A stretch of DNA of 64,000 nucleotides from Minisyncoccia bacterium. Its GTDB lineage: Bacteria; Patescibacteriota; Minisyncoccia; Phycocordibacterales; UBA9973. The DNA lies in NCBI GenBank assembly GCA_965656375.1, contig CBFHKH010000001.1, positions 13,432 to 77,431 on the forward strand, in the 5' to 3' direction. The translations under genes and the position numbers were made by a program. The first letter of the stretch is position 1. The number at the start of each line of letters is the position of its first letter. Shown here one piece after another: positions 9,115 through 25,289 of the stretch. The notes beneath the pieces are model-generated. The model worked only from the letters and a program-made list of their open reading frames with translations, was not told where the DNA came from and made no database searches.

Positions 9115-9200
9115 CGCCACGAACTATATGTTTATAAAGTGTGGATAACCGTAATCTCTTTGTGTTGCTAAATATGCACATATCTGGGATACTAAAGTAT

Positions 9201-9860
9201 ATGAAAAAGTCACATATTAAATTCGCCTTAAAAAGTATTGGGATTTCGACACTAATAGTCACACTTTTTGTTCAAGTCCTATACGTTGCATTTGAACCAA
9301 CAACAGTTAAAGCTGCATCCGTTACAGATGCTATTCTTGTTACTTTGACAGTAGACTCCGGAATAGCAATCACATCACCAGCAGACTGTGCACTTACTCC
9401 AAATATCAGCATTACTGCAAATAGTGCAATATGCAGCTCAACATGGAATGTTAAGACAAACCATGCTACAGGGTACACACTTGCTATCAAAGCTCAAGCG
9501 TCACCAGCACTTGTAAGTGGAGGAAATAGTTTTGCCGACTATACGCCAGCTGTAGCAGGAACTCCAGAACTCTGGTCAGTAGGTTCAGGAGCTAAGGAGT
9601 TTGGTTACTCTGTATTTGGTACTGATTCATCTACTGCAACATGGGGTACGTCTCTTTCATGTGGAACATCAGGAACTCCTGCTGCTGCTCAGAAATATCG
9701 AGATACAACAACAAGTGATGTTACTGTAGCTACACGTGCTGTCCCTACTCCATTTGCAGGTATTGATACTACATTCTGTGGTGCAGCTGCTCAAAATGGT
9801 ATCTACGCTGCAGCAGGATCATACCAAGCGACTATAACTGCGACCGCAACTGAAATATAA
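9201..9860 (+). CDS. Secreted beta-rich surface protein, WxL-domain-like (paralog 1)
   Basis: Start chosen at the internal ATG, which precedes a signal peptide (KFALKSIGISTLIVTLF). W-x-V motifs STWNV / ELWSV are followed by GYTLAIKAQASPAL. The C-terminal strand AGSYQATITATATEI resembles the terminal WxL strand. It is paralogous to the 10871-11647 protein. Confidence 0.5.
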   Translation: MKKSHIKFALKSIGISTLIVTLFVQVLYVAFEPTTVKAASVTDAILVTLTVDSGIAITSPADCALTPNISITANSAICSSTWNVKTNHATGYTLAIKAQASPALVSGGNSFADYTPAVAGTPELWSVGSGAKEFGYSVFGTDSSTATWGTSLSCGTSGTPAAAQKYRDTTTSDVTVATRAVPTPFAGIDTTFCGAAAQNGIYAAAGSYQATITATATEI

Positions 9861-9882: not shown

Positions 9883-10860
9883 GTGAACTTACATACATAT
9901 AAAAAAATAGTTTTCTCAATTGGGGTATTTGCGCTTTTTTCAATAGCCGGAGGATTGATATACGCCGCTGAGAGGACAACCATAACAACTGAAGATTTCA
10001 ATGACTTCGTTGTAGAACCAGGTAGAACTGAAGTGCTTCTTGATCCTGGTCAGCATATTACAAAATACGTAAGTATTACGAACCGTATTAACAAAACTGT
10101 TAACTATGTTCTTACGAAAGAGGACTTAGTTGGAAGTAACGATCCTGATTCTCCGGTTAAACTTCTTGGTAATGAAACAGGACCATATTCTCTAAAAGAT
10201 TTTATAACTCCTGAGATAAATACTTTTAGCCTTAAATTCGGAGAGAAGATTACTATTGCTGTTGATATTTCAGTACCAGAGAAAGCTGAACCACGCGGAC
10301 ATTACGGCGCGCTTATCATTTCTACAACACCAAGTCTTAATGCAGATGGAACAGTCGCTGAAGAAGCAAAAGGAGGTGCACGTATTGTTTCGCGTATTGG
10401 CTCACTGTTTCTCGTTAAGGTAAATGGAGAGGGAAGACAAGAAGCATCGCTTCATGATTTTAAAACAATTGGTCCAAAGCGGTTAATTTTTAGCCATCCA
10501 CCAGAGGGTTTTGAAGTTGCACTTAAAAATACTGGTACGGTTCACCTTGTTCCGTACGGTACAGTAACAATTAAGAACATGGTAGGAAAGACTGTTGATA
10601 TACTACCGATAAATGCATATTTCTCACTTCCAGATTCAATACGATATATACAAACGCCGTGGGATAAAAAATTTGGTTTCGGCCGGTATACCGCTGATCT
10701 ATCGCTCTACCGTGGGTATGAGGGTGAAAACTTAGAATCGAAAATCGCCTTTTGGATTCTTCCATGGAAGATAATAATTCTTGCTATTGTCGTAATATTG
10801 ATCTTAGTTTCTATCTTCTATTATATTTCTACTCGATTTGAACTTAAAAAGAAAGGCTAA
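9883..10860 (+). CDS. DUF916/DUF3324-like cell-surface protein with an N-terminal signal peptide and a C-terminal TM anchor plus basic tail
   Basis: GTG start. The architecture is signal peptide, Ig-like region, second domain, then C-terminal anchor. The Ig-like region is FVVEPGRTEVLLDPGQ...YVSITNR...GHYGALI. The anchor FWILPWKIIILAIVVILILVSIFYYISTRFELKKKG is typical of WxL-locus CscA-type anchors. Confidence 0.5.
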   Translation: MNLHTYKKIVFSIGVFALFSIAGGLIYAAERTTITTEDFNDFVVEPGRTEVLLDPGQHITKYVSITNRINKTVNYVLTKEDLVGSNDPDSPVKLLGNETGPYSLKDFITPEINTFSLKFGEKITIAVDISVPEKAEPRGHYGALIISTTPSLNADGTVAEEAKGGARIVSRIGSLFLVKVNGEGRQEASLHDFKTIGPKRLIFSHPPEGFEVALKNTGTVHLVPYGTVTIKNMVGKTVDILPINAYFSLPDSIRYIQTPWDKKFGFGRYTADLSLYRGYEGENLESKIAFWILPWKIIILAIVVILILVSIFYYISTRFELKKKG

Positions 10861-10870
10861 TTCTACTGTG

Positions 10871-11647
10871 ATGAGAGTGTATACCACTACTAAAAAAAGT
10901 ATTCGTTTTTACGTAATACTTTTTTTAGTAGCAAGCACTACTCTTATCCCATGTTTATCTGTAACTGCGTATGTCATGGGGAGTGGTGCGTATCAAATTC
11001 AATCTGATAGCATTAACGTCGGAGGACTCTCGTCAACATCTACAAACTATGGTCTCAATGATACGCAAGGAGAGGTAGGAACAGGCTACTCAAACAGTTC
11101 AAATTATTATATGCATGCCGGGTACTGGCAGATACAAGATAGTTATATATCAATTTCTTCACCTGCAGATATCGCACTCTCTTCTATCTCTGGACTTACT
11201 GGTGGCGGTTCAGAAGGAACTGCAGCATGGACTGTTATTACTGATAATGTGGCAGGATATTCAATGACGATACAGACGAGCACTACTCCAGCACTCAAAT
11301 CGACCTCCGATTCATTTGCAAACTACACACCGAGTGGTGGGAATCCTGATTATCTATTTACGAATGCATCAGCGAATTCTTCATTTGGGTTTTCACCAGA
11401 AGGTTCTGATGTAATTACTCGCTTCAAAGATAACGGTTCAGCATGTAATACTGGAACGTCCGAAACTAGCTCTCGCTGTTGGGATGGATTATCAACGAGC
11501 GCGGCAAATATTGCAGGAAGTAGTACCAGTAACCACCCAGGTGGCACGCCTACCACGGTTCGCTTCAGAGCTGAATCAGGAGCAACTCATATACAGACCG
11601 CTGGTGCGTACTCTGCGACTGTAACGGTAACAGCAACTACGCTATAA
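10871..11647 (+). CDS. Secreted beta-rich surface protein, WxL-domain-like (paralog 2)
   Basis: Internal ATG start with a signal peptide. Motifs AAWTV...GYSMTIQTSTTPAL and the C-terminal AGAYSATVTVTATTL parallel the 9201-9860 protein. Confidence 0.5.
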   Translation: MRVYTTTKKSIRFYVILFLVASTTLIPCLSVTAYVMGSGAYQIQSDSINVGGLSSTSTNYGLNDTQGEVGTGYSNSSNYYMHAGYWQIQDSYISISSPADIALSSISGLTGGGSEGTAAWTVITDNVAGYSMTIQTSTTPALKSTSDSFANYTPSGGNPDYLFTNASANSSFGFSPEGSDVITRFKDNGSACNTGTSETSSRCWDGLSTSAANIAGSSTSNHPGGTPTTVRFRAESGATHIQTAGAYSATVTVTATTL

Positions 11648-11654
11648 TACAGTA

Positions 11655-13604
11655 ATGAAATCTCTATACCGGACACTTCCTCTTTCTATAGTCATCCTTT
11701 TTGCCAGTATAAGCATTGCTTCTGCTGCAACGAGCACTTTCCCAGTACGTCTCAATGTCCAAGGATGTAACAATAACGGTATCTGTGAAGCAGTGCTCGG
11801 CGAAGACACTAGCAGTTGTCCAGCTGATTGCCATACAGGACCTCCTGGCGATGATGGTGGGGGTGGTGGAGGTTCTCCAAACTATTTTTATGACATACGA
11901 GTAACTCCGACGCAAACAGGTGCGTATTTTGATTGGAAGAGTCGATTTCCTGCACTCTCAACGCTCAAGTGGGGACTAACGACTGATTATGCGCTTGGCT
12001 CTACCCAAGAAACAATGTATTCTGCAACGCATACATCTTTTATTCAAAATTTACTAACTAATACTCGCTACTATTTTAAAATCGAAGGTCAAAATACTGA
12101 TCGTACTACAGTTCCAGCATATGTTAGTTTTTTTAATACCCTCCGCGTTCCTGATGATACACGACCGTCTCCTCCAACAGATTTTATAGCTACACCAAAC
12201 ATCGCTACGAATACCATCACTCTTACTTGGCACAATCCAACTGATTCTAATTTTAATTATGTACGTATAGTGAGAAACAGGGAGACAGGGAATACAAGTC
12301 CATTCCTTGGCCAGATTATATATGAGGGAAATCTTGAGTACGCAATAGATAGAGATATCTTTGTATTTACTCGATATTTTTATACTATTTTTGCCCGCAC
12401 AACAGAGGGCGAATTTTCTTCTGGTGTTGAAGCAAACGCTATGGTGAGTCCTATTTCTATTGATCAGTGTATCCTCAATCCGTCATCATGTGTGCCACCT
12501 CCGAATCCATGCACACTCAATCCATCATCATGTATTAATCCACCAGACCCATGTCTCTCAAATCCTTCGTTATGCACCACTCCACCTACAGATCCATGCC
12601 TAGCAGCTCCGTCACCATGCACTACAGAGCCTATCGATCTACCAGTTAAAGAAGTACCAAATATCGTAACCCTTACTCCGTCTATTGCTGTTGGTCTCAG
12701 TGTCTTACTCTCAACACTATCCGCATTGCTTTCAGGATCATTTGCATTTGGAGAAATAGGATTCTTACTCTTACGATTGTGGTCACTTCTCCTCATTGCA
12801 TTTGGACTCAAGAAACGTACTCCACCGTGGGGTGTCGTGTATGATAGCGTTACCAAGCAACCACTTGATCCGGCGTATGTCGTTCTTCTTGATAAGAATG
12901 GAAATGAAGTTGCAAGTTGTATTACAGATTTGGATGGACGATACGGATTCGTAGCAGAGCCTGGAGTCTATACAATCGTTGCTACCAAAACTAATTATTC
13001 ATTTCCATCTAGAAAGCTCCATGGCATGAGAGGGGATGAGCTCTATGGTAATTTATATTTTGGTCACGATATCGAAATTACAAAAAGTGGATCAATCATT
13101 GCAAGTAATATTCCGCTCGATCCTATTAACTTCGACTGGAACGAATTTGCGAAAAGAGATCAGCATCTTATGAAATTCTTCAATGCTCGAGATGTGTGGC
13201 TCGGTAGACTTTCAAACGTACTATTTTGGGCAGGGTCACTGTTCTCTGTATATGCAGTTATCGTGAGCCCTACAGGGTACAATATCGCAATTGTAGGACT
13301 TTCTCTTTTTGTATATATACTGCGAACTCTTGGATTGCAGAGTTATCCAAAAGGATCAATTTTTGAAGGTCTAACTAAGAATCCGCTTCCATTCTCAATC
13401 TTGCGCGTCTACGGGGAAGGTAGTACAAACGAACTCTATCACAAAGTTGCTGATCGAACAGGTAGATATTATGCAATTGTGCCAAATGGTAAATATCGAG
13501 CTATAATTGAAAAGAAAAATGCCGATGAATCATATACAAAGATTCCAGTTTCTGAACCTGTTTCAGTAACCAGAGGCTATCTCAAAAAGAATTTTAAGAT
13601 CTAA
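11655..13604 (+). CDS. Polytopic membrane protein with a signal peptide, an FN3-like domain, a Cys-Pro-rich repeat linker, multiple TM helices and two carboxypeptidase-regulatory-like beta-sandwich domains
   Basis: The FN3-like region is PSPPTDF...TITLTWHNPTD...YVRIVR. There are six repeats of the form P-x-P-C-x-x-N-P-S-x-C. The hydrophobic stretches are LSVLLSTLSALLS and LLLRLWSLLLIAF. The CarbopepD_reg-like segments are GVVYDSVTKQPLDPAYVVLLDKNGNEV...DLDGRYGF and GRYYAIVPNGKYR. Confidence 0.55.
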   Translation: MKSLYRTLPLSIVILFASISIASAATSTFPVRLNVQGCNNNGICEAVLGEDTSSCPADCHTGPPGDDGGGGGGSPNYFYDIRVTPTQTGAYFDWKSRFPALSTLKWGLTTDYALGSTQETMYSATHTSFIQNLLTNTRYYFKIEGQNTDRTTVPAYVSFFNTLRVPDDTRPSPPTDFIATPNIATNTITLTWHNPTDSNFNYVRIVRNRETGNTSPFLGQIIYEGNLEYAIDRDIFVFTRYFYTIFARTTEGEFSSGVEANAMVSPISIDQCILNPSSCVPPPNPCTLNPSSCINPPDPCLSNPSLCTTPPTDPCLAAPSPCTTEPIDLPVKEVPNIVTLTPSIAVGLSVLLSTLSALLSGSFAFGEIGFLLLRLWSLLLIAFGLKKRTPPWGVVYDSVTKQPLDPAYVVLLDKNGNEVASCITDLDGRYGFVAEPGVYTIVATKTNYSFPSRKLHGMRGDELYGNLYFGHDIEITKSGSIIASNIPLDPINFDWNEFAKRDQHLMKFFNARDVWLGRLSNVLFWAGSLFSVYAVIVSPTGYNIAIVGLSLFVYILRTLGLQSYPKGSIFEGLTKNPLPFSILRVYGEGSTNELYHKVADRTGRYYAIVPNGKYRAIIEKKNADESYTKIPVSEPVSVTRGYLKKNFKI

Positions 13605-13692
13605 ATCACCCATATATCTACGTGTGGATAACTTAATCTTTTTATTAGCATAAAAAGATTATTTTAGCTATACTGTATATAGTTATTTTTGT

Positions 13693-13739
13693 TATATCGT
13701 CTATCCGATACACTCATTCTTTCTATATCGTCTATCCGA
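13693..13739 (+). promoter_or_regulatory. Two exact 16-nt direct repeats, tatatcgtctatccga, with starts 31 nt apart, upstream of the HTH / giant-protein operon. Candidate operator or promoter element.
   Basis: Repeats at 13693-13708 and 13724-13739 lie in the AT-rich 160-nt intergenic region before the ATG at 13765. Confidence 0.3.
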
Positions 13740-13764
13740 GATAGCCTTATAATATATAGCTTAT

Positions 13765-14121
13765 ATGGAATCTCTTAAAAAAATTATAAATTTAAGCGAA
13801 GCAGCAAAAATGAGCGGCTATACTCAAGACTATTTGGGCTATCTGATTCGCACGGGCGAGATGAAAGGCAAGAAGCTTGGTAGGAACTGGGTCACCACTC
13901 AGGAAGAACTCAATAATTACATTTTTAAGAGAAAAATTCGCCAAAATGAGCTCGCGTTAAACTATTTTGTCTCAAAGCGCCGTATCAAAAGTATCATCAC
14001 TATTTCTATTATCTTACTGATTATAGTCACCTCGATAGTGATGGTTTCTCAAAGCGAGAAAACTCCTGTCACGCTTCAAACTGAACTTTCGAATACGGTG
14101 GAAGCAACAACTACTAATTAA
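13765..14121 (+). CDS. Small excisionase/MerR-type HTH (HTH_17-like) DNA-binding protein with a C-terminal TM segment
   Basis: The HTH region LSEAAKMSGYTQDYLGYLIRTGEMKGKKLGRNWVTTQEEL matches the HTH_17 pattern. The C-terminus is hydrophobic (IITISIILLIIVTSIVMV). The stop codon is 2 nt before the giant gene's start. Confidence 0.5.
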   Translation: MESLKKIINLSEAAKMSGYTQDYLGYLIRTGEMKGKKLGRNWVTTQEELNNYIFKRKIRQNELALNYFVSKRRIKSIITISIILLIIVTSIVMVSQSEKTPVTLQTELSNTVEATTTN

Positions 14122-14123
14122 TA

Positions 14124-17100
14124 ATGGAATCTTTAATTAAAAACGTAAAAAAAACTGTTGTTAAAAAAAAGATCTCTGTAGTATTTCTTGTGCTACTCAT
14201 AGTTTTCTCAATCTCATACTCCGCTACGAACGCAGCATTTAATAAACAAATAAATTACCAAGGAAAACTTACAACATCTGTAGGGGTGGCTGTTGCAAAT
14301 GGAACATATAACATGGAGTTCAAACTCTATACTGTAAGTTCTGGTGGAACTGCTGTATGGACAGAAACAAGAACTGGTGCTGATAAAGTTCAAGTGACAA
14401 GCGGACTTTTCTCAGTACTTCTTGGTGAAGTAACATCACTCTCAGGAGTCGACTTCAATCAGACGCTTTATCTAGGAGTCAACATCGGAGGTACTGGTTC
14501 TCCAGCTTGGGATGGAGAAATGACTCCACGAAAAAAATTGGGTGCTGTACCTGCTGCAGTAGAAAGTGAACGGGTGGGTGGCTTTACACCTGCGCAATCA
14601 GCGAGTGGAAGTCAAATCCCAGTGCTCACATCTGATGCGATTATTTTAAGTGGTAGCGCAGCAGGCCTTACTGGCACATCTGCAAATGTTCTCAAGCTTC
14701 AAGGTGGATCGACGGGCGATATACAGTTTTTTGGAGCAACAAATAAAATTTCAAATGCTGGTATGCTTACACTTGCTGGAGGCATTACTGTCACGCCCTT
14801 CACTGCTGCAAACGGCGTCGTCTATGCCACAAGTTCTGGGGTACTTACACAAACTGCTGCATCATCCGGTGCATCATGTCTCATCTCAGCATCGGCTGGT
14901 GCTGCACCGACGTGGGGAGCGTGTACGGCTGGAGGATACTGGTCCCGTTCTGGAACCACAGTCAGTCCGAGTACAATTACCGATAAAGTAAATATCGGCA
15001 ATGCAACAGATCAGGGAAGTTACATATTGCAAGTCACCGGAGATCAGTACCTCGATGGAAAACTTCATCTAAAAAATACTGATATTCAAGAAATGGGAAC
15101 GCGATCCATTTCAATCGGGGCAGATATACCAAGTGTCACGGACAGCTTCTTTTTTGGACAAAATGCTGCAACTTCTGCAACTGGAGCGAGCAACTCAAAT
15201 TTTTTAGGTAACAACGCAGGATATACTGCTACGTATGCTCAAAACTCAAACTTTTTGGGCAATAGAGCAGGGTACGCTGCAACTTCTGCAAGTGGTTCAA
15301 ATTTCTTTGGTTATAGTGCTGGAGAAAGCGCATCCTCTGCAAGTGGTTCAAATTTTTTTGGTACTAGTGCTGGAAACGGAGCTACTAGCGCTGCCGAATC
15401 GAACTTCCTAGGCTCATATGCAGGCGGCAGTGCGTCGTCAGCTTCATTTTCAAACTTTTTAGGATACGCAGCCGGCTATCAGGCAACGAGCGCACTCCGC
15501 TCAAACTTTTTCGGTAATAGCGCAGGACAAGGTGCTTCAAATGCGTCGTATTCAAATTTTATAGGATACTTGGCTGGAAAAACTTTTTCGGGAAATAATG
15601 TCGGGTCAAACAATATAATCATCGGTACCAACATTTCTCTTCCAAATGCTGCTGCAAATTCCATCAATATCGGAGGAATCCTTTTTGGAACCGGTACCTA
15701 TGCAACTACGACAGGTAATGCATCGATTGTTCCAGTTGCGGCAGGAAATATTGGTATCGGCGTAGTATCCCCGACAGCTCGCCTTCATCTTGCAGCAGGT
15801 ACTGCCACTGCAAACACTGCTCCGCTTAAATTTACAACTGGTACGGCACTTACCACGCCTGAAGACGGATCAGTAGAATATCACAGCTCACACTTATACT
15901 TTACAATTGGTTCGACTCGATATCAGCTTGACCAACAAGCAGCCGGAGGAGGAGTGCATCTTGATCAGATAGCTGCAGCGCTTGCTTCTAATGGATCGGG
16001 TATTGATAACTTAAACTATGCACAAACCTGGAATTGGTCTACCGCTACAACTCAAACCCCACTCACACTCACTGCAAACGGTTTAACAACGGGAAGTATC
16101 CTCTCCCTTACTTCAAGTTCTGCTTCAGCAACAACTGGTCAGAAAGGATTGAATGTTGCACTTACTGGTGCACTCACTGGAGCACAGACAACCTATGGTG
16201 GATATTTCTCAAATGCTCGTACTGGTGCAAGTGCGGTTAATGTCGGTCTCTATGCAACTGCATCGGCAGCAGGTACAAACTATGCTGCAATCTTTGATCA
16301 AGGGAATGTGGGGATTGGGACGACGACACCTGCTTCTAAATTAGATATTGCGGGAACCATTACTACCAACGGAGACACTGTCTCAAATCTGGTAGCCACG
16401 GTGAGTAATATGAATGGCGGTACTCTATATGGTTCAAAGATTGCGCTCACTGCTGGAAGCGGTGCAGGTGCAGGTGGGGCGATTGTAGCAAATAACATCA
16501 GTACGACCTTGTCTGGAACTACCAACTTACCAAGTAGTATTGTTGGTTTGGCAACTCAGACTAATCACGGAGCGGCGTCAGGTACCCTCACAAACCAGGT
16601 TGAATATCAGACAGGACCTTCAGTGACAGGTGGTGCGACAACGACAACATTGCAGCATATCAGCTTGAGAGATGTCTTTACTTCAACAGGAGGTACGGTT
16701 ACCAACCAATACGGCCTGTACATCAATGGATTAACTGCCGCAGCTACTAACTACGGCATATATTTTGCAAACACACCCAATGGTGGCTCGATTACTTCTG
16801 GTGCTTCAACAGACATCGCAATTATACCTGGTGCTGGTGGCAACGTCGGTATAGGTGACACAACTCCAGCGTCACTCTTCACCGTCGGTTCAGGTGACCT
16901 ATTCCAGATCAACTCTTCTGGTAATGTCGCTGCTATAGGCGGCGCGGCACATACGATTGCAAATTCTTCTGGTGCACTCAGCATTGATGCTGCATCCTCA
17001 GGTGCCTTGAATTTGAACAACACAGGAACCGGCGACGTTCTCCTTGCAGGAGGTTCAGCAGCAACAGGTTGTACGGTTGCAAACTCAACTGGAAACCTCA

Positions 17101-20100
17101 CGTGTTCTGGTAACATCATCGGTGGAACTACTGGTACTATCGGCTACTGGGCACGTAACAATTCTACTTTTACCCTCACTCCTGCAACTGCAAACGACAT
17201 AATTTCAATTTCAACAAATTTAACCACTGCATCCAACAAAGCAATCGAAGGCCTCCAGACTGGCGCGACATCTGGCACGGACTACGCCGGCTATTTCTCA
17301 AACACTGGCGCAGCCACAACAAATGTTGGTTTGTATGCGACTGCAAGTGGAGGAACGAACAACTACGCAGCGATATTTGACCAAGGGAATGTTGGGATTG
17401 GGACAACGACACCAAATGCTTCATATGAATTACAAATAGGAAATGGTTCAGGGTCAGCTACAGGGCGAATCCTTCTTAGTGGAAATGGTGATGATGAACA
17501 TATAATGTTTGCTAATAGTGGAGGTAACCGCTTTCGGATTGGTCAAAACGGAACGGTTCTTGGCTTCGTAAGCCAAGGAACTGGTGTTGGAGGTGTCGGG
17601 CAGTCATTCTTATTTACTGGTGGTACTCCTGATACGAGTCACCAAGGTTCCTTGTTTAAGATAAGTGGTACATTTAATCAGGCAGCACAGGTAACTGATG
17701 GCTTGCTTGTAAATATTACTAACACTGCTTCAGCTGCTGGTTCGAGTCTTGCTAATTTCCAAATCGGAGGCTCTTCAAAATTCTTTATTGATGCCAATAA
17801 CGGCAACGTCGGTATCGGGACGGCAACACCAGGACAAAAATTACAAGTTGAAGGTGATGTTAGTATCACTCGTTCATCGTTTTCTAGTACTCATCAAATT
17901 CAAATAAACAATGGAGGTAATACTATCGGTATCGGTTTTAATTCACCTGTCTCAACTCTCGACATTATTGGTTCAAGTGGAAGCCAGGCATACATTGTTT
18001 CTAATAATGCTGCGCTTAATGTCGGTAACCGCTCAACGGGACCAATTAATTTTGTCACACAGAGCGCTTCAGGAACAAAATGGCAAATAACTTCAGCTGG
18101 TAACTTTATTACTGGTGCTGACAACAGTTACGATATAGGAGCAAGTGGTGCAACAAGACCTAGAACTGGATATTTCGGTAGCACTGTCGTTGTAGGTGCA
18201 TCTCAAATTAAAACACTCTCATCAACAGGCTATTATGTGGCTACGAGGGGTTCATTGCAAAATCCATCTGATGGTGTTTGGCTAATTACTGATGCAGCTG
18301 AAACAAGTTTCGGTCGCCTTCAACTTGGCGGGACTACATCTAGTTTCCCAGCAATCAAGCGAAACGGTACAGCAATAAACTTCAGGCTCGCTGATGACTC
18401 GGCCGACACTACAATCACCGCATCTGGCGCGACGCTCTCGACAGCTCCGACTACTTCTGCGGGAAGTTACGACATCATCACTCGAAACTCTTCAACTGGA
18501 GTATTAGAAAAAATATCTAGCACTGCTATGCCAGGTGGATCAGGTACCACAAACTATGTTGCTCGTTGGACGGGAACAAATACACTTGGCACTGGAGTAC
18601 TCTATGATAACAATACAAGTGTTGCTATTAGTGATACATCGACTGATAGTGTCGGGGCAAAATTATTCGTTAATGGTGCAATCTCGGCAGTAGGAACTAT
18701 CAGATCATTTGCTGCGAAAGATACTTATAATGTTGCTATCAGTTCAAACAGTATCAATGCCTATAACTATACTAACCCTAGCGGCCAAGGACTCAGTATT
18801 TTGAATGTGAGTACGGGGAATCTCGCTTTAGTAGGCGGAGGCGGAAACGTTGGCATCGGCAATGCTTCCCCATCGGGACTTCTCTCGCTCGCTGGCAACC
18901 GTACTGCTTTAGCGTGGGGCACAACAGGTATTAATTTTCAGACTGCTGCAGCGACTTACACTGACAGTTCGTCTTCAGGAACAGTTGCAAGCGTAGTTGC
19001 AAATTCTTTTGGAGTTCCAACATTCGCAGCATCATCAGCGACGACATACACTGCTGCATCAAATGTCTACATCGCTGGAGCACCAAGTGCTGGGACTAAT
19101 GTCACGATCACAAAAGGATACGCGCTTGATGTTAATGGTCCAACAAGAATAAAAACAAACTCTGGAAGCGCAACAGGACTAACGCTCACAAGTACTGGAA
19201 CTATAAACTGGAGATTTGGAAATGTGGCGACAAATGATTTTGGTCTATTTGCTCCAACAAGTGCAGGTGGAGAAGTTGCACTCCTTAACTTTACAGATTA
19301 TACCGACGCTTCTGTGCCAGTTTTGAGATTTGGAGGAGGTATTGCTGCATATGGATTCAATCCATATTGGGGCATTAATACAACGGGTGCAGGTACAAAC
19401 TATAGTAGTGATTTTGTTGTGAAGTCTTTTGGATCAACTCATGTGACTTCGGTTTCTAATTCCTCGAATGTACTTACACAGTGGGTTAATAGTAATGGTG
19501 ATGGATACTTTGCAGGCAACGTAGGTATTGCGAATACAAGTCCGACAGCGAAGCTTGATATAACATCGACCCAGACAGCGACAGCGAACAGCCAAGTGCT
19601 CGGAGTCAATCTAACAGGAACACTTACTGCACGTGCTACTGCGTCAGATACGCTCTATTCGATGCGCAACACTCAAGTATTAACTGCTGCGGCGAACAAT
19701 CAAAATCTTGTCGGATTGTCTATTGCTCCTACTTATTCTTTAGGAGCTTTTACTGGAACAACTATGTTCCCCCTTGATGTTGTAGGCTCTGCAGGCGCAA
19801 GAGTTAGAGTCAAAGCATTATCAAACGGCAATGTTGAATTACAAGTAGGTGATCCTACAGGAGGTGGCAATGGTGGCAATATAAGATGGTTACGTCCTTC
19901 TGGTGGCGCAGATGGACCAACAATATCTTTCGGTAATGCTGACTTAGCTTTCGATAATCCAGGTTATGGAGGATTTGTATTTACCGCTACTTTAGGAGCT
20001 TCTATGTCTGTATTAAAATTAACAAATACTCCTTATGCAGCAGGTACAGCTACAACTAATCATCCATTATTTTATAGAAATGGCGGTACAGCACCGACGA

Positions 20101-23100
20101 CATGGAGTACAGCCGGTACGTACGACGGATGGAACGCGGTATCTGGATTTACTGGGAACTTCTTGGATGCTCACGTAAACGGAGGAGCGAGTGTCTTCAG
20201 TGTCGACTACACTGGCAAGGTCAATGGCTCAGGGGCGAATTTCTCTGGTCTCACCGCATCATCTGCTGTCTATACAGACGGTTCAAAAAATCTCACCTCA
20301 AGCGCGCCAAGTTCTGGCACCATCGGTTACTGGGCGCGAACTGGAACTCAACTTTCACCTGCATCAATTGGTGACGAAGTAAATATTGGAAATACAACTG
20401 ATCAAGGTGCGTATACACTTCAGAATACAGGGAACTTTTATAATAGTGGCTCAATCGTACAAGTCAGTCCAAGCTTCACAGGTACTCACACCATTGCGTT
20501 TAGTGCTAACAATCAAATAACTTTTACAAATAGTGGAATCGGTGCGTACATGGTAGTAGGAGCAGGTAACTTTGTTGACTTCCAGGGGCAGTCAGTTAGA
20601 TCTACTGGTCGTGGATATATTGCGGGCTCAACAGTAGCAGGAACTTCTCCATTTTCTATAAGCACTGTTCCGGCACAATCATCTGGTACGACTGATAACA
20701 ACTCAATATCAATTACTCAGACGATAAACAACACTGGAACATATTCTGGAGTGTATCGAGGATTTTACTACAATCCGACACTTACATCCCTCACTGGTAC
20801 GACACATCGAGCAATTGAAACGGTAACAGGCGATGTAATCTTAGGTAGTACTAGTGGTAATGTTGGAATCGGGAACCCTACTCCTTTTAGCGGTGCAACT
20901 GTCGCACCATCACTAGAAATCGGAACAACAGGCACAGCAAGTGGTAACCTTATTGTTCGAGGATTTTCAGCACTTGGCAGTACACAAGCTAACGGTTTTG
21001 GTGCGGTTGGTTCAAACTACTATTTGGATTCTTCTAATGCTATACGCAGAAAAAATGGAGATTTCGTATCTGTCCTTGAGTTTCCATCAGGAGGATTTGC
21101 ATTCAAAACATCAGGGAATGGGGCAGCTAACTCTAGTGTGTCACTAACAACTCTCTGGAATATTGCAGCAAGTGGAAATATTACCGCTGGTACTGATAAT
21201 GCATATGATATCGGCGCAAGTGGAGCGAACCGAGCAAGGGACTTCTTTTTAGGAAGAGATGCGGTAATAGGTAGGAACTTTACTATTACAAACGGAAATA
21301 TAAATGCAACGAGTTCTCTCACATCTATAGCAGGTTCAGGTAACGGAAATCTATTTACAACAAATCATACAGTCAATACTTCAGCCTCATATCTTGGTAC
21401 GAACTTCCTTTCAAATGTATCCACTGCTTCAGGTGCCGGTGGAACTGTTGTTGCCCAGCAAGCAACAGTAAACTACTCTGCAACAGCAAATCATATTTCA
21501 GGTATAACTGGGTATCAAATTGATGTTAATCATACGGGTAGTGGAACATTATCGTCTGTATCAGGATTGGTTTCTCAAGGATTTGTTGGAAACAGTGCAA
21601 CAGTATCAAATTATTATGCATTTAAAACACTCGGATTGTTTACCCCGGCGACAGGTGCGGTCACTACTCAGTACGGATACTATTATGACCAAGCATATAT
21701 CACACCTGGTATAGGCTACGCATTTTATTCAAAAGTAAATCCGTCAGGAGGAACACTTGCATCTGCTGCTTCAACTGCTATTAGTATTATCCCTGGTAAT
21801 AGTATTATTCAGATTGGAGGTCAAACCTCCTCATTTCCAGCGTTAAAGCGAAACGGTACGGCAATAAACTTCAGATTGGCGGACGATTCTGCAGATGCGG
21901 CGATCACTGCTTCTGGTGCTACATTCTCTGGCCTTGGAGGTGGGGGTACTCAATGTGTGCAGACAAACAATACGGGAGTACTCTCGGCAGCAGCGTGTGG
22001 TGGAGGTGCGACTCGTCTCGATCAAATCACTGCTGCAACAGGAACTAACAGTATCGACTCGCTCAACTTCGATCAAACATGGAATTGGTCCACTGCTTCT
22101 ACCAGCAGTCCAATGACGCTCACTGCAAACGCTCTTTCGAGTGGCTCACTTCTCACACTTTCTTCAAATAGTACACAGGCAAGTGGAGGTAGCCAGTCAT
22201 TATTGAAAATTGATCTTTCAGGTGCGAATGCAAATACTGGAGAATCTACTTTTGGTGCTAATATATCGAACGGTCACACTGGGACTTCGGGAACTAATTA
22301 TGGAGTAAATTCTATTGCGTACGGTGGGGATACTAATTACGGTTTGTATGCTAGTGGATCTGGAAACGGAACTCAGAATATCGGTGTTGGCGCTGATGCG
22401 TATACTACTAACAATGCTACGGAAAATATTGGACTCATGGCTACTGCTTCAGGAGGTCTGCTAAATTACGCTATCATTGTCCCTCCTACCTACGGTAATG
22501 TTGGTATCGGAAATAGTGCTCCAGGAAGTTTACTTACTGTAGGTTCATCATCACAGTTTAGTGTCACCTCTGCTGGTGTAACCACTATTACTGCATCAAG
22601 TTCCAGTGCATTTACTGTTGCAAAGACTGGAACTAATTATGCGCTCCAAGTTGATACATCAACCGGTTCTGCGGTAACAGGGCTCAAGATTAAAAATAAC
22701 GCAGCCACCGGTGGTGTAGCACTCTCAGCTATTTCTTCAGGTACCAATGAATTCCTCACACTCGACGCAAAAGGAACAGGTGAAGTTCGTATTGGTGGTA
22801 TCTCTACGGGCGACGTTCTCCTTGCAGGAGGTTCAGCAGCAACAGGTTGTACGGTTGCAAACTCAACTGGAAATCTGACCTGTTCCGGCAACATCATCGG
22901 TGGAACTACTGGTACTATCGGCTACTGGTCTCGCTCAGGTACTACACTTACTCCTGCAACAGGAAATGATATCCTCTCAATCCCAACTACAAATACATCT
23001 GGTGCAGACCTTGCAATCACAAACACTGGTGCATATACAGGTACAGGAATATTCAATCTCACTGCAAACTCAGCAACGACGGGTACACTTGCGAGTATTT

Positions 23101-25289
23101 CATCATCATCACTGACCTCAGGTATGCTTGCAAAATATCTTCTCTCAGGATCATCAGCAGTTGCTACTGCCGCAAATTCTGGTTCTATTGCGACATTTGC
23201 TTCAACTGCGACTGGATTTACCGCTGCAACGCAGGCACTTGTCGCCGTGAATTCAAGTGGAACAAACGGAACTACTGGTGTAACAATTCAAGGTATTAAT
23301 TCTACGGTGACGAATGCAGGTACTACGAGTACCAATGTTGCGGGCTTCTTCAGTGCATCAGGTGGAACGAACAACTATGCGCTTATCGTGCCTTCAGGAG
23401 GAGGAAGAGTGGGTATAGGAACAAGTACTCCAACTGCTACGCTCTATGTCACTCAAGCTGCTATGACCTCAGTCGGTTCAGGAAGCGGTACGAACAATAT
23501 TGCGCCGCTTACGATTCTTGGAGGAGCAGGCGGTGCTACTTCTGCAACGTCAGGAACGGTGTTTGGAGGTAATGCTGGTGCTATAAATCTTACTGGTGGA
23601 AATGGTGGAGCTATTACTGGTACCCCAGGTACAGGCTTCGGTGGTAACGGAGGAACGATTAATCTTACTGGAGGAGATGGAGGACTCGGTACGACATTTG
23701 GTGGAGCTGGTGGAAACGTCGAAATTGCAGCTGGCGTTGGAGGATTTTCAACCGGTGTATCAGGAGTGGGAGGATATGCTGCACTTAAAGGAGGGAATGG
23801 TGGCTCGACGAATGGGACTGGTGGCAATGTCTACTTGATCGGTGGAGCAAAAAGTGGTTCTGGATCCGACGGTAATATCTACTTGAATGTTTCACCATCA
23901 CTCACTGTCCGCGGACTCACTGGTATCGGTACAACAAACGCAGTCTATCGTCTTGATGTTCTCAATGACGCCGCAGGACAAACTACATCAAATCGCATCG
24001 CGAACTTCTCAAATGCTGGAGCAACATTCAATACAACGAGTGGAGCGCTCTTGTCCTATGGAGGATATTTCTCCTCGACATCAACTCGATCAACCGGAGC
24101 AAATGATTTGAACAACGTAGCTCTCTATGCGACTGCTTCTGGTGCGCAGAATAACTACGCGGCGATCTTTGATCAGGGAAATGTTGGTATCGGAACCGCA
24201 ACTCCGAACACCTCTTTGCATATCCTTGGCACTCCAAACGTTAATGCTGGTCTCCTTAAGTTACAGGCAAAGACGGGAAGCGGCGAAGATGATGCTGGCA
24301 TCACCTTTTTTGCCATGCCGTCAGGCGCAGATACCAACTCCCGCAACTGGCAGATCGCAAATAACTACCAAGCATACGGCAACTTGGATATAATGCGTAG
24401 CACTTCTAATACAGGGAATCCTACTACTGCTGTCGCATCGTTTGATATGAACGGTAACTTCGGTATCGGTGATACAACACCGGACTACTTGCTTGATGTT
24501 GCTAACACAGGAGTAGACAATAATATCTTTTCTTTAACAGACTCGGACGGAGAGTGTCTCTATAATCCAGAGGCTGGTTCAGTCACGGTTACGTGCTCAT
24601 CAGATGAGCGTCTAAAGAATAATATTGTTGATGCTCCTTCGGCGCTTGCATACTTTAAATCATTCAAAATAAGACAATACAACGTTAGAGCATCTGGTGA
24701 CAGAATGATTGGAGTCATTGCACAAGAAGTATTACAAACAAACCCAGAGCTTGTAACAGTGAGCCCAAGTGGAATGTACTCAGTGCAGTTGCCGAGTCAG
24801 TGGCAAGTAGTGGGAGCGTTACAAGAACTCGATCTTAAAATCGCAGGACTTTCATCGCTTGATACGATGAATAATAATTCGATAGGATATTTAATTAAAA
24901 GCTTTTTGGCCGATGTAGGGAACACTATAGAGAGTATATATGCAAAAGTAATTCATTCTGACCGTATTGAGACGAAAACGCTTTGTGTTGGAAGTACGTG
25001 TGTTACTGAAGAGCAATTCTTGCAAATGGTACAGGGAGCTGGCGGTCAAAATTCTGGTGGTGGAAATGGTGGCAGTGGAGGAGGAAATCTGCCACCAACT
25101 CCACAGACCGACGTCTGTCCAAATATAGATGGTGATCAAGCTATCGTTCCAGATGAAATGCATATTGATCAAGACAACAATTGTGTAGCAAATCCGTCTA
25201 CAGAGGGGGGTGAATCAACTCCTCCAGCTACAGATGGCGAAAGCACAGGTGACGGGGAAAGTACACCACCAGTTACTGACGGGCAATAG
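14124..25289 (+). CDS. Giant (3,721 aa) Gly/Ser/Thr/Asn/Ala-rich surface fiber-like protein. It has an N-terminal signal/anchor, beta-helix-type repeats and a C-terminal phage tail-spike-type intramolecular chaperone (peptidase S74) autocleavage domain.
   Basis: A single uninterrupted 11.2 kb ORF. The N-terminal hydrophobic segment is ISVVFLVLLIVFSI. There are tandem 17-aa SNF(L/F)G..AG repeats. The motif GN(V/I)GIGTTTP...KL recurs at least 10 times. There are Gly-rich GGNGG stretches. The C-terminus carries CSSDERLKNNIV...IGVIAQEVLQTNPELV. Confidence 0.8.
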   Translation: MESLIKNVKKTVVKKKISVVFLVLLIVFSISYSATNAAFNKQINYQGKLTTSVGVAVANGTYNMEFKLYTVSSGGTAVWTETRTGADKVQVTSGLFSVLLGEVTSLSGVDFNQTLYLGVNIGGTGSPAWDGEMTPRKKLGAVPAAVESERVGGFTPAQSASGSQIPVLTSDAIILSGSAAGLTGTSANVLKLQGGSTGDIQFFGATNKISNAGMLTLAGGITVTPFTAANGVVYATSSGVLTQTAASSGASCLISASAGAAPTWGACTAGGYWSRSGTTVSPSTITDKVNIGNATDQGSYILQVTGDQYLDGKLHLKNTDIQEMGTRSISIGADIPSVTDSFFFGQNAATSATGASNSNFLGNNAGYTATYAQNSNFLGNRAGYAATSASGSNFFGYSAGESASSASGSNFFGTSAGNGATSAAESNFLGSYAGGSASSASFSNFLGYAAGYQATSALRSNFFGNSAGQGASNASYSNFIGYLAGKTFSGNNVGSNNIIIGTNISLPNAAANSINIGGILFGTGTYATTTGNASIVPVAAGNIGIGVVSPTARLHLAAGTATANTAPLKFTTGTALTTPEDGSVEYHSSHLYFTIGSTRYQLDQQAAGGGVHLDQIAAALASNGSGIDNLNYAQTWNWSTATTQTPLTLTANGLTTGSILSLTSSSASATTGQKGLNVALTGALTGAQTTYGGYFSNARTGASAVNVGLYATASAAGTNYAAIFDQGNVGIGTTTPASKLDIAGTITTNGDTVSNLVATVSNMNGGTLYGSKIALTAGSGAGAGGAIVANNISTTLSGTTNLPSSIVGLATQTNHGAASGTLTNQVEYQTGPSVTGGATTTTLQHISLRDVFTSTGGTVTNQYGLYINGLTAAATNYGIYFANTPNGGSITSGASTDIAIIPGAGGNVGIGDTTPASLFTVGSGDLFQINSSGNVAAIGGAAHTIANSSGALSIDAASSGALNLNNTGTGDVLLAGGSAATGCTVANSTGNLTCSGNIIGGTTGTIGYWARNNSTFTLTPATANDIISISTNLTTASNKAIEGLQTGATSGTDYAGYFSNTGAATTNVGLYATASGGTNNYAAIFDQGNVGIGTTTPNASYELQIGNGSGSATGRILLSGNGDDEHIMFANSGGNRFRIGQNGTVLGFVSQGTGVGGVGQSFLFTGGTPDTSHQGSLFKISGTFNQAAQVTDGLLVNITNTASAAGSSLANFQIGGSSKFFIDANNGNVGIGTATPGQKLQVEGDVSITRSSFSSTHQIQINNGGNTIGIGFNSPVSTLDIIGSSGSQAYIVSNNAALNVGNRSTGPINFVTQSASGTKWQITSAGNFITGADNSYDIGASGATRPRTGYFGSTVVVGASQIKTLSSTGYYVATRGSLQNPSDGVWLITDAAETSFGRLQLGGTTSSFPAIKRNGTAINFRLADDSADTTITASGATLSTAPTTSAGSYDIITRNSSTGVLEKISSTAMPGGSGTTNYVARWTGTNTLGTGVLYDNNTSVAISDTSTDSVGAKLFVNGAISAVGTIRSFAAKDTYNVAISSNSINAYNYTNPSGQGLSILNVSTGNLALVGGGGNVGIGNASPSGLLSLAGNRTALAWGTTGINFQTAAATYTDSSSSGTVASVVANSFGVPTFAASSATTYTAASNVYIAGAPSAGTNVTITKGYALDVNGPTRIKTNSGSATGLTLTSTGTINWRFGNVATNDFGLFAPTSAGGEVALLNFTDYTDASVPVLRFGGGIAAYGFNPYWGINTTGAGTNYSSDFVVKSFGSTHVTSVSNSSNVLTQWVNSNGDGYFAGNVGIANTSPTAKLDITSTQTATANSQVLGVNLTGTLTARATASDTLYSMRNTQVLTAAANNQNLVGLSIAPTYSLGAFTGTTMFPLDVVGSAGARVRVKALSNGNVELQVGDPTGGGNGGNIRWLRPSGGADGPTISFGNADLAFDNPGYGGFVFTATLGASMSVLKLTNTPYAAGTATTNHPLFYRNGGTAPTTWSTAGTYDGWNAVSGFTGNFLDAHVNGGASVFSVDYTGKVNGSGANFSGLTASSAVYTDGSKNLTSSAPSSGTIGYWARTGTQLSPASIGDEVNIGNTTDQGAYTLQNTGNFYNSGSIVQVSPSFTGTHTIAFSANNQITFTNSGIGAYMVVGAGNFVDFQGQSVRSTGRGYIAGSTVAGTSPFSISTVPAQSSGTTDNNSISITQTINNTGTYSGVYRGFYYNPTLTSLTGTTHRAIETVTGDVILGSTSGNVGIGNPTPFSGATVAPSLEIGTTGTASGNLIVRGFSALGSTQANGFGAVGSNYYLDSSNAIRRKNGDFVSVLEFPSGGFAFKTSGNGAANSSVSLTTLWNIAASGNITAGTDNAYDIGASGANRARDFFLGRDAVIGRNFTITNGNINATSSLTSIAGSGNGNLFTTNHTVNTSASYLGTNFLSNVSTASGAGGTVVAQQATVNYSATANHISGITGYQIDVNHTGSGTLSSVSGLVSQGFVGNSATVSNYYAFKTLGLFTPATGAVTTQYGYYYDQAYITPGIGYAFYSKVNPSGGTLASAASTAISIIPGNSIIQIGGQTSSFPALKRNGTAINFRLADDSADAAITASGATFSGLGGGGTQCVQTNNTGVLSAAACGGGATRLDQITAATGTNSIDSLNFDQTWNWSTASTSSPMTLTANALSSGSLLTLSSNSTQASGGSQSLLKIDLSGANANTGESTFGANISNGHTGTSGTNYGVNSIAYGGDTNYGLYASGSGNGTQNIGVGADAYTTNNATENIGLMATASGGLLNYAIIVPPTYGNVGIGNSAPGSLLTVGSSSQFSVTSAGVTTITASSSSAFTVAKTGTNYALQVDTSTGSAVTGLKIKNNAATGGVALSAISSGTNEFLTLDAKGTGEVRIGGISTGDVLLAGGSAATGCTVANSTGNLTCSGNIIGGTTGTIGYWSRSGTTLTPATGNDILSIPTTNTSGADLAITNTGAYTGTGIFNLTANSATTGTLASISSSSLTSGMLAKYLLSGSSAVATAANSGSIATFASTATGFTAATQALVAVNSSGTNGTTGVTIQGINSTVTNAGTTSTNVAGFFSASGGTNNYALIVPSGGGRVGIGTSTPTATLYVTQAAMTSVGSGSGTNNIAPLTILGGAGGATSATSGTVFGGNAGAINLTGGNGGAITGTPGTGFGGNGGTINLTGGDGGLGTTFGGAGGNVEIAAGVGGFSTGVSGVGGYAALKGGNGGSTNGTGGNVYLIGGAKSGSGSDGNIYLNVSPSLTVRGLTGIGTTNAVYRLDVLNDAAGQTTSNRIANFSNAGATFNTTSGALLSYGGYFSSTSTRSTGANDLNNVALYATASGAQNNYAAIFDQGNVGIGTATPNTSLHILGTPNVNAGLLKLQAKTGSGEDDAGITFFAMPSGADTNSRNWQIANNYQAYGNLDIMRSTSNTGNPTTAVASFDMNGNFGIGDTTPDYLLDVANTGVDNNIFSLTDSDGECLYNPEAGSVTVTCSSDERLKNNIVDAPSALAYFKSFKIRQYNVRASGDRMIGVIAQEVLQTNPELVTVSPSGMYSVQLPSQWQVVGALQELDLKIAGLSSLDTMNNNSIGYLIKSFLADVGNTIESIYAKVIHSDRIETKTLCVGSTCVTEEQFLQMVQGAGGQNSGGGNGGSGGGNLPPTPQTDVCPNIDGDQAIVPDEMHIDQDNNCVANPSTEGGESTPPATDGESTGDGESTPPVTDGQ
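15194..15601 (+). repeat. Eight tandem in-frame 51-nt (17-aa) coding repeats, S-N-F-(L/F)-G-x-x-A-G-x-x-A-T/S-x-A-x-x, inside the giant gene
   Basis: The units SNFLGNNAGYTATYAQN, SNFLGNRAGYAATSASG, SNFFGYSAGESASSASG, SNFFGTSAGNGATSAAE, SNFLGSYAGGSASSASF, SNFLGYAAGYQATSALR, SNFFGNSAGQGASNASY and SNFIGYLAGKTFSGNNV follow one another directly. Confidence 0.7.
17031..17150 (+). repeat. 120-nt intragenic segment duplicated at 22809-22928 at about 96% nt identity (copy A)
   Basis: Both copies encode GDVLLAGGSAATGCTVANSTGNLTCSGNIIGGTTGTIGYW. There are 5 mismatches in 120 nt. Confidence 0.75.
22809..22928 (+). repeat. Copy B of the 120-nt intragenic duplication
   Basis: See copy A. A second, more diverged duplicated module at about 80% nt identity pairs 18343-18435 with 21831-21925 (SSFPA(I/L)KRNGTAINFRLADDSAD..ITASGAT). 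Confidence 0.75.
24590..25000 (+). other. C-terminal intramolecular chaperone / autoproteolysis domain (peptidase S74, phage endosialidase / tail-fiber type) of the giant protein
   Basis: It matches the conserved core S-D-x-R-L-K-x-N-I...(A)QEV...P..V and the following helical segment (LQELDLKIAGL...IESIYAKV). By analogy the scissile Ser is expected directly before DERLK. Confidence 0.6.

Follow-up and report, generated by a model that had tools for sequence, protein, structure and literature searches.

We analyse here a stretch of 64,000 nucleotides (nt) from the genome of a Minisyncoccia bacterium (assembly GCA_965656375.1, contig CBFHKH010000001.1, positions 13,432 to 77,431 of the forward strand), hereafter called the window, with positions counted from its first nucleotide. 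At its centre of interest is a small gene, at 13765-14121, which encodes a protein of 118 amino acids (aa) with a winged-helix domain of the helix-turn-helix (HTH) kind and one transmembrane (TM) helix. Immediately downstream lies a giant gene, which encodes a putative surface fibre with a Peptidase_S74 domain, and immediately upstream lie a conserved pair of sequence boxes and four further genes, called up1 to up4. With a probability of roughly 0.55 for the two statements taken jointly, we propose that the small protein, anchored in the membrane, would autoregulate the giant-fibre operon by binding the boxes, and that its gene represents the split form of a module to which the fibre is joined covalently in sister lineages.

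The small protein

The initial annotation had described the small gene as an open reading frame (ORF) for a 118-aa protein with an N-terminal HTH_17-like motif and a stop 2 nt before the ATG of the giant gene, and all of this was found again: the ORF begins with ATG and ends with TAA at 14119-14121, the motif quoted there corresponds to residues 10-49, and the gap to the ATG at 14124 is the dinucleotide TA. The AlphaFold2 model of the protein (33 sequences) has the order strand-helix-helix-strand-strand, with a confidence score (pLDDT) of about 95 over residues 11-50, the elements being a strand at 7-9, helices at 10-17 and 21-30 and strands at 35-38 and 41-45, after which a long helix extends from residue 46 to 68. 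When the model was compared with the PDB by Foldseek, the best matches were TraN, RacA, CueR, the RdfS excisionase, BldC and the Pukovnik Xis, all of which share the MerR/excisionase fold, with a probability of about 0.99 for TraN, RacA, RdfS, BldC and Xis; the target-normalised TM-score is 0.54-0.73 for the small single-domain targets RacA, RdfS, BldC and Xis and 0.36-0.38 for TraN. CbpM, which has a protein-binding MerR-like fold, is also among the matches. A search of the HTH profile against the PDB sequences gave chance matches only (e.g. azurin, E > 0.5), and thus the kinship to solved structures is visible at the level of the fold only. The excisionase-type HTH of the initial annotation is therefore retained as a fold of excisionase/MerR type, as given by AlphaFold2 and Foldseek, and the small protein is a putative DNA-binding protein.

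As to sequence profiles, the assignment to HTH_17 is firmer for the family than for the window protein itself, which stays below the threshold, while 31 of the 33 homologues match HTH_17 at E <= 0.01 (best 2.5e-6), this being the sole consistent family. The NCBIfam profile TIGR01764 ('excisionase') matches the small protein with E 0.024 and 15 bits, relative to a cut-off of 28.8, and the NCBIfam scan otherwise returned just sub-threshold, composition-driven matches, such as MAG0920 and MrtS. Within the winged helix, Y19, Q21, D22, Y23, R29, K37, G39, R40, W42, T44 and T45 are kept family-wide, and helix 2 and the wing carry conserved surface residues that are polar and basic; in the juxtamembrane part, F68, S70, R73 and I77 are nearly invariant in the family.

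The C-terminal TM helix claimed earlier is backed both by hydropathy, with a mean Kyte-Doolittle value of 2.86 for residues 76-94, and by the AlphaFold2 model, which has a helix at residues 71-96. Because a K/R-rich sequence precedes this helix, the predicted topology is that with the N-terminus inside and the C-terminus outside, which places the HTH in the cytoplasm. The tail of 23 aa that would be left outside is poorly conserved and has a pLDDT < 50 at residues 99-118, and no sensor domain was found in the small protein with Pfam and NCBIfam.

Fusion of the module to large proteins

A profile search of a database of 5.8 billion proteins places the small protein in a family of membrane-anchored excisionase-fold modules, fused to or adjoining giant surface proteins, with at least 1907 protein clusters (90% identity); the matches listed were mainly short or partial, and the architectures were taken instead from 83 genome loci (given below by L numbers where needed). 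At least 27 more distant Patescibacteria species have the HTH+TM module as the N-terminal part of one large protein, with sizes between 400 and > 3300 aa. The 65 TM-containing members from species-level genomes have sizes of < 150 aa (24), 150-400 aa (14), 400-1000 aa (14) and >= 1000 aa (13), i.e. 27/65 have 400 aa or more, with many of the long fused ORFs being cut off by contig ends. The HTH of the fused forms always occupies the extreme N-terminus and is followed by the TM helix and then by a long exported part. In L026, for example, one ORF of 3352 aa carries HTH_17 at residues 21-68 and Peptidase_S74 at residues 3059-3118; beyond this S74 domain, Pfam detected almost nothing in the extracytoplasmic parts of the fused relatives, and the fused partners are unclassifiable.

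The fusion in L037 (796 aa) consists of the HTH, the TM helix, the residues AHA and then AVGVPKILSYQGRL, joined straight to a homologue of the N-terminal domain of the giant protein. In place, AHA followed by AVGVPKILSYQGRL corresponds to the AxA followed by FNKQINYQG of the stand-alone giants, and the HTH-TM part thus stands in for the signal peptide in L037. By the classical fusion argument, these fusions indicate that the small and the giant proteins act together, which may include a contact of the small protein with the fibre.

A conserved box pair upstream of the small gene

Two exact copies of ATCGTCTATCCGA, at 13696-13708 and 13727-13739, are contained in a 31-nt tandem repeat (13677-13707 and 13708-13738, 81% identical) ahead of the small gene, and they are the sole matches at 0 or 1 mismatch within the 64-kb window. 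The initial annotation had pointed to repeats at 13693-13739, and these are confirmed as a conserved box pair that is specifically associated with the HTH-TM family. The core ATCCGAGATA is invariant in 9 aligned loci, both split and fused, at about 33 nt before the ATG; the box consensus is tATCGkyTATCCGAkAT, with the pair spaced by 31 nt, and intergenic alignments show that the boxes are kept in relatives whose proteins are just ~50-65% identical. The box arrangement is identical in split and fused genes, while in distant members the boxes occur in either orientation and at variable distance.

Over the 83 loci, the density of TATCCGA is 2.77/kb in the 300 nt upstream of HTH genes, 0.22/kb in other non-ORF DNA and 0.117/kb in ORFs, a roughly 12-fold enrichment of the core upstream of HTH+TM genes, fused or split; the longer pattern TCGNNTATCCGA has seven matches outside the 400 nt upstream of HTH genes in ~1.07 Mb of fetched DNA. 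TATCCGA is present within 300 nt in 47 of the 65 TM-type loci as compared with 2 of the 18 loci with soluble Chloroflexi-type HTH proteins (Fisher p = 4e-6), the latter having a different recognition helix. Moreover, the base that follows TATCCGA varies with the recognition helix, being g in 23 and t in 14 cases with QDYLG helices, and g in 2 and t in 21 cases with Q[DE]Y[LI]S helices (p = 4e-5).

We also considered whether the boxes form an RNA element, and rejected this on three grounds. Rfam gave no credible match on the leader (the only match, NRON at 14073-14200 on the minus strand, lies outside the leader and has 12.4 bits against a gathering threshold of 50, E 0.4); single-sequence folding of the leader is unexceptional (z = -0.83); and RNAalifold on 14 leaders gave -0.59 kcal/mol with zero covarying pairs. 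With no RNA structure, the boxes are read as a candidate sequence-specific protein-binding site. The HTH domain is the only feature common to all box-bearing loci, and we infer that it is the small protein that would bind them.

Two side observations concern the boxes elsewhere. A box-like GGATATCGCTATCGGATATATG occurs inside the rpoB coding region at 28292-28322, ~360 nt before the rpoB stop, and is probably a chance match. In L015 the box pair is in reverse orientation with the 31-nt spacing kept, and the pair is separated from the small gene by an inserted short ORF that has a GIY-YIG-like sequence, YTYVLKSKKDGKLYTGFTNDLRKRLSEHNSGKS (L015 9578-9996, and probably in L010 too); this ORF may be a mobile insertion of the homing-endonuclease type.

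The giant gene and the surface cluster

The precursor of the giant protein in the window has an AxA site after residue 37, where TNA is followed by AFNKQINYQG, and its Peptidase_S74 domain covers residues 3493-3544. In all stand-alone giant homologues, including those of L001-L022, the signal peptide likewise closes with AxA, and (A/V/L)FNKQINYQG comes next; in the window, the part concerned is 14124-14234. Since the signal peptide would be cleaved at this conserved site, the mature fibre is probably freed from its own anchor, and some other component of the cluster must then hold it.

Wherever a near-family locus reaches far enough, a homologue of the giant N-terminal domain is found downstream of the small gene, in line with the co-occurrence anticipated in the initial annotation. 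The translational coupling claimed there stands in part: the 2-nt gap is real and the adjacency of the two genes is conserved, but the gap in 16 near-family loci is -17 to +5 nt in 9 and 33-206 nt in 7, and an extra ORF lies between the small and giant genes in three further loci (L014, L017 and L021). No Shine-Dalgarno-like sequence is visible in the sequence ahead of the start codons of up1, the small gene or the giant gene, and with none at the starts of the latter two, reinitiation after termination is plausible in the window genome. Note also that long small-giant gaps are filled with short purine-rich tandem repeats, such as (AGTAAGT)n and (AAGAATT)n (Table 1). A likeness between the N-termini of the small protein (MESLKK) and the giant protein (MESLIK) is regarded as a coincidence, being found in the window only (the giant protein of L084 starts with MKSLIK) and absent in other relatives.

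A tblastn survey of the six window proteins against 84 fetched loci showed that the order up1-up2-up3-up4-small-giant is kept in ~20 species-level genomes, in which the first 150-270 residues of the last cluster gene's product are homologous to the giant N-terminus. The flanks of the cluster vary, with trmD in the window, L001 and L084 and EF-G in L003; as the gene order is kept while the flanks differ, the six genes travel together. Four loci (L031, L036, L043 and L050) have a longer HTH-TM gene (219-575 aa) at the head of the cluster, with the up genes and the giant homologue behind it. Multiple tblastn hits per locus place two or three HTH-family genes close together in L042, L055, L065, L068 and L081, which suggests a local expansion of paralogues of the HTH module there.

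Table 1. Features of the small-giant locus and its upstream cluster (positions in the window unless a locus is named)
Feature	Position	Strand	Description and basis
DnaA-box-like TGTGGATAA, second copy	9140-9148		Ahead of up1
up1	9201..9860	+	Secreted, ~200 aa, up3 paralogue; listed ORF from GTG 9141, homology begins near ATG 9201
up2	9883..10860	+	325 aa; signal peptide, two beta-sandwich domains, C-terminal TM helix; resembles WxLIP
up3	10838..11647	+	Secreted, up1 paralogue
up4	11655..13604	+	Signal peptide, fn3-like domain, Pro/Cys-rich linker, several TM helices, CarboxypepD_reg domains
AT-rich hairpin after up4	13622..13673	+	Better terminator-like hairpins with T run at the same place in relatives
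DnaA-box-like TGTGGATAA (reverse complement TTATCCACA)	13623..13631	+	Conserved upstream of promoter
Promoter-like TTAGCA-18-TATACT	13645..13674	+	-10 kept as TATAAT in relatives
Distal box ATCGTCTATCCGA	13696..13708	+	Candidate operator
Proximal box ATCGTCTATCCGAGATAG	13727..13744	+	Core ATCCGAGATA
Second -10-like TATAAT	13748..13753	+	11 nt before ATG; sequence read directly
Small gene	13765..14121	+	118 aa; HTH_17-like winged helix (predicted cytoplasmic), juxtamembrane helix, one TM helix, short tail predicted outside
Winged-helix domain, residues 7-53	13783..13923	+	Strand 1, helix 1, helix 2, strands 2 and 3 (wing); AlphaFold2, Foldseek, conservation
TM helix, residues 76-95	13990..14049	+	After K/R-rich FKRKIRQ...SKRRIK; hydropathy, AlphaFold2
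Tail, residues 96-118	14050-14118	+	Predicted outside and disordered; AlphaFold2
Giant gene	14124..25289	+	3721 aa; signal peptide, N-terminal domain ~38-236, C-terminal Peptidase_S74
Purine-rich repeat-filled small-giant gaps	L008 10379-10523; L010 1503-1601; L015 10367-10415; L020 10370-10438		In relatives

Promoter context

The hairpin after up4, together with the clearer terminators in relatives, suggests that the small and giant genes form a transcription unit of their own. Two promoter geometries can be considered for this unit. If the promoter-like site with its -10 at 13669-13674 is used, both boxes would lie in the transcribed leader, downstream of the promoter. If the second -10-like element is used, for which no -35 is assignable and just upstream of which the proximal box is located, the mRNA would be almost leaderless and the proximal box would overlap the -35/spacer region. 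Repression would fit either geometry better than activation.

A perfect DnaA-box sequence lies ~16-20 nt upstream of the -35 at both cluster promoters, and at orthologous positions in relatives (L084, L001 and many others). Its density over the 83 loci is 1.43/kb upstream of HTH genes, 0.20/kb in other non-ORF DNA and 0.012/kb in ORFs. As a target of the small protein this element was rejected, because other, unrelated genes are preceded by it as well; it is probably a more widely used element upstream of promoters in Patescibacteria. At up1, a promoter-like TTGCTA-17-GATACT (window 9165-9203) ends 7 nt before the ATG at 9201, which would imply that the up1 mRNA is leaderless.

Proposed mechanism and alternatives

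Based on these data, we propose the following mechanism. The HTH would face the cytoplasm, with the single TM helix holding the small protein in the membrane and ~23 residues exposed outside. The protein would bind the two tATCGkyTATCCGAkAT boxes, which lie between the promoter and the protein's own ATG with a spacing of 31 bp (~three helical turns), as can be expected from Xis and BldC, proteins of the same fold that bind direct repeats head to tail. In this way the small gene and the giant S74 fibre gene, as a two-gene unit, would be subject to autoregulation by the small protein, most likely in the form of repression. With the regulator being split from a fibre-attached module, the amount of the membrane regulator would be tied to the amount of fibre protein made, in the window genome through co-transcription and probably through termination-reinitiation over the 2-nt gap.

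Several points weigh against this mechanism. The top Pfam match of the small protein, HTH_17 (PF12728), is sub-threshold, with E 0.0028 and 18.3 bits relative to the cut-off of 27. An HTH next to a TM helix can be protein-binding, as RodZ binds MreB. The exact 7-mer TATCCGA is absent within 300 nt in 18 of the 65 TM-type loci, the boxes could be bound by another factor, and phylogeny is a confounder of the link between helix type and box variant, to which common descent contributes. In addition, tight translational coupling of the small to the giant gene is not conserved across relatives, and with two alternative -10-like elements the sign of the regulation is a guess.

The protein-binding capacity of such domains leads to a different explanation, in which the small protein would be a structural adaptor or anchor and no regulator: the HTH would serve as a tail on the cytoplasmic side that binds proteins, much as in RodZ or CbpM, the secreted fibre or the membrane proteins up2/up4 would be kept in place by the TM helix or the outside tail, and the boxes would belong to another regulator. 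The apparent loss of the signal peptide from the mature giant protein, which then needs an anchor, speaks for it, as do the nearly invariant juxtamembrane residues, the presence of CbpM among the Foldseek matches, and the fusion of the module to many unrelated extracytoplasmic regions, as would be expected of a generic anchor. However, it leaves unexplained why the box pair accompanies the HTH gene in split, fused and varied contexts and why the box variants track the recognition helix, and it sits poorly with the conserved polar and basic residues on the recognition helix and wing and with an outside tail that is short, poorly conserved and predicted to be disordered; we consider it unlikely, though with a chance that deserves to be taken seriously. 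The same short and disordered tail bears on whether the small protein is an envelope-signal sensor of the ToxR/CadC type, with the outside part modulating the DNA binding. The topology (N-terminal DNA-binding domain, one TM helix, C-terminus outside) is indeed ToxR-like, and the large outside part of the fused relatives could report contact or load. But ~23 residues with no sensor domain in the Pfam or NCBIfam scans, behind an HTH that is not of the OmpR/PhoB type, make such a sensor improbable, and the 'envelope-signal-dependent' control suggested in the initial annotation is accordingly not upheld for this protein.

That the boxes directly precede the start of the HTH coding sequence, in split and fused genes alike, is also compatible with a tethering of the locus (transertion), in which the nascent HTH would bind the boxes of its own gene in cis and the TM helix would pin the gene to the membrane, so that a protein of > 3000 aa would be made and exported at one site. 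The invariable order of the HTH at the extreme N-terminus, the TM helix and the long exported part fits this, and RacA, of the same fold, is a chromosome-anchoring protein. However, the idea is conceptual only, the data not separating tethering from autoregulation, two readings that can both hold, and its logic is weakened in the split form, where tether and fibre are separate polypeptides; its chance is slight, although we would place it a little above that of the sensor. Related to it, and slightly less improbable, albeit speculative, is the idea that HTH+TM is a very long signal-anchor or leader of giant fibres that doubles as a transcription factor and serves as an export 'receipt'. In L037, AHA followed by AVG...YQGRL would be a signal-peptidase-type site where the stand-alone giant precursors have AxA followed by FNKQINYQG, so that for each fibre subunit exported and cleaved, one HTH-TM would stay behind in the membrane. 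The HTH-TM would then bind the box pair at its own promoter and count the exported fibres (an export-coupled feedback), or pin the gene to the export site, and the window would represent an evolutionary fission into a separate gene, with near 1:1 amounts kept by translational coupling. There is next to no chance, finally, that the small gene is a relic excisionase, i.e. a recombination directionality factor (RDF) left by a degraded mobile element or prophage that also supplied the S74 fibre gene, as the initial annotation had offered as its alternative. The fold and the weak TIGR01764 and HTH_17 matches are of the excisionase type, and Peptidase_S74 is typical of phage fibres, but no integrase was found at the locus, the window neighbours are trmD, rpoB, rpoC and surface-protein genes, the close homologues are all from Patescibacteria (Paceibacterota, Nomurabacteria and others), and there are zero relatives among 2.9 million viral contigs. 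The window is therefore cellular chromosomal DNA, not phage or prophage, and a prophage or RDF origin was ruled out by the viral-contig search and the housekeeping synteny; such an origin would also be at odds with the synteny over ~20 species, with a family sequence conserved across the sampled species and with the conserved TM helix.

Significance and comparison with known systems

Patescibacteria are ultra-small, mostly uncultured bacteria that are presumed to be attached to host cells, and their gene regulation is poorly understood. Full-text searches of the literature for giant proteins, HTH or S74 of Patescibacteria, and for MerR/excisionase proteins anchored in the membrane, yielded nothing on the HTH-TM family. 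The present analysis defines a candidate DNA target, which is directly testable, and a conserved six-gene surface cluster. If the autoregulator proposed here is real, it would offer an example of a structural surface protein with a transcription-factor domain of its own, with the surface fibre wired to its own gene control; the HTH residues 1-68 and ~80 bp of DNA would provide a simple in vitro handle on regulation in unculturable organisms, and thousands of 'hypothetical' giant genes would become easier to annotate.

Among the known systems, ToxR and TcpP are membrane-bound regulators that act on DNA and bind repeats at target promoters. Together with CadC they resemble the small protein, for which this is a prediction, in having an N-terminal cytoplasmic winged helix, a single TM helix and the C-terminus outside. 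CadC acts on DNA while membrane-bound and binds repeats at its target promoters (PMC5430869). The three differ from the small protein in having an OmpR/PhoB-type domain and a folded periplasmic sensor, whereas the small protein has the excisionase/MerR (HTH_17) fold, with zero Pfam matches to Trans_reg_C (OmpR/PhoB) even at E <= 10; the outside part in the HTH-TM family is either ~23 residues or a giant fibre, and the apparent target is the own promoter, unlike with ToxR and CadC.

By its fold, the small protein belongs with lambda-type Xis, Pukovnik Xis, RdfS, BldC, TraN and RacA. BldC and Xis bind direct repeats cooperatively, with which the two direct boxes 31 bp apart can be compared, and RacA tethers DNA to a cell site. 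However, all of these are soluble, with neither a TM helix nor a secreted fusion, while the small protein is membrane-anchored and has no recombinase partner. The MerR regulators combine a winged HTH with a long dimerisation helix, a C-terminal effector region and a palindromic operator in a promoter spacer of 19-20 bp; in the AlphaFold2 model of the small protein, a long helix (46-68) follows the wing but continues directly into the TM helix, with no effector region present, and the proximal box is placed just upstream of a -10-like TATAAT.

A genetic link between a membrane regulator and the surface structure that it controls is found in the RsgI anti-sigma factors of Clostridium thermocellum (cellulosome) and in ArnR/ArnR1 of Sulfolobus (archaellum). 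RsgI, which is equipped with carbohydrate-binding sensor modules, works through a sigma factor, ArnR has a HAMP domain and two TM helices, and neither is part of the structural protein. RodZ shares with the small protein an N-terminal HTH, a basic juxtamembrane stretch and a single TM helix, and is the model for the structural adaptor considered above; its HTH, however, is of the Xre type and binds MreB rather than DNA, and it is not known to have a cognate DNA motif.

The up genes, finally, recall the WxL/Csc clusters of Firmicutes (PMC10599100, PMC1534035), in which there is no HTH-TM gene. The defining features of WxLIP are DUF916, DUF3324 and a C-terminal TM helix, with the WxL domains residing in small secreted partners, and no WxL domain was detected in up1 or up3. 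The regulator described for the WxL cluster of L. plantarum, RwpL, is a soluble protein of the MarR type (PMC13522541). The large protein of the Firmicute clusters has a C-terminal WxL domain, whereas that of the window has a conserved N-terminal domain and an S74 C-terminus.
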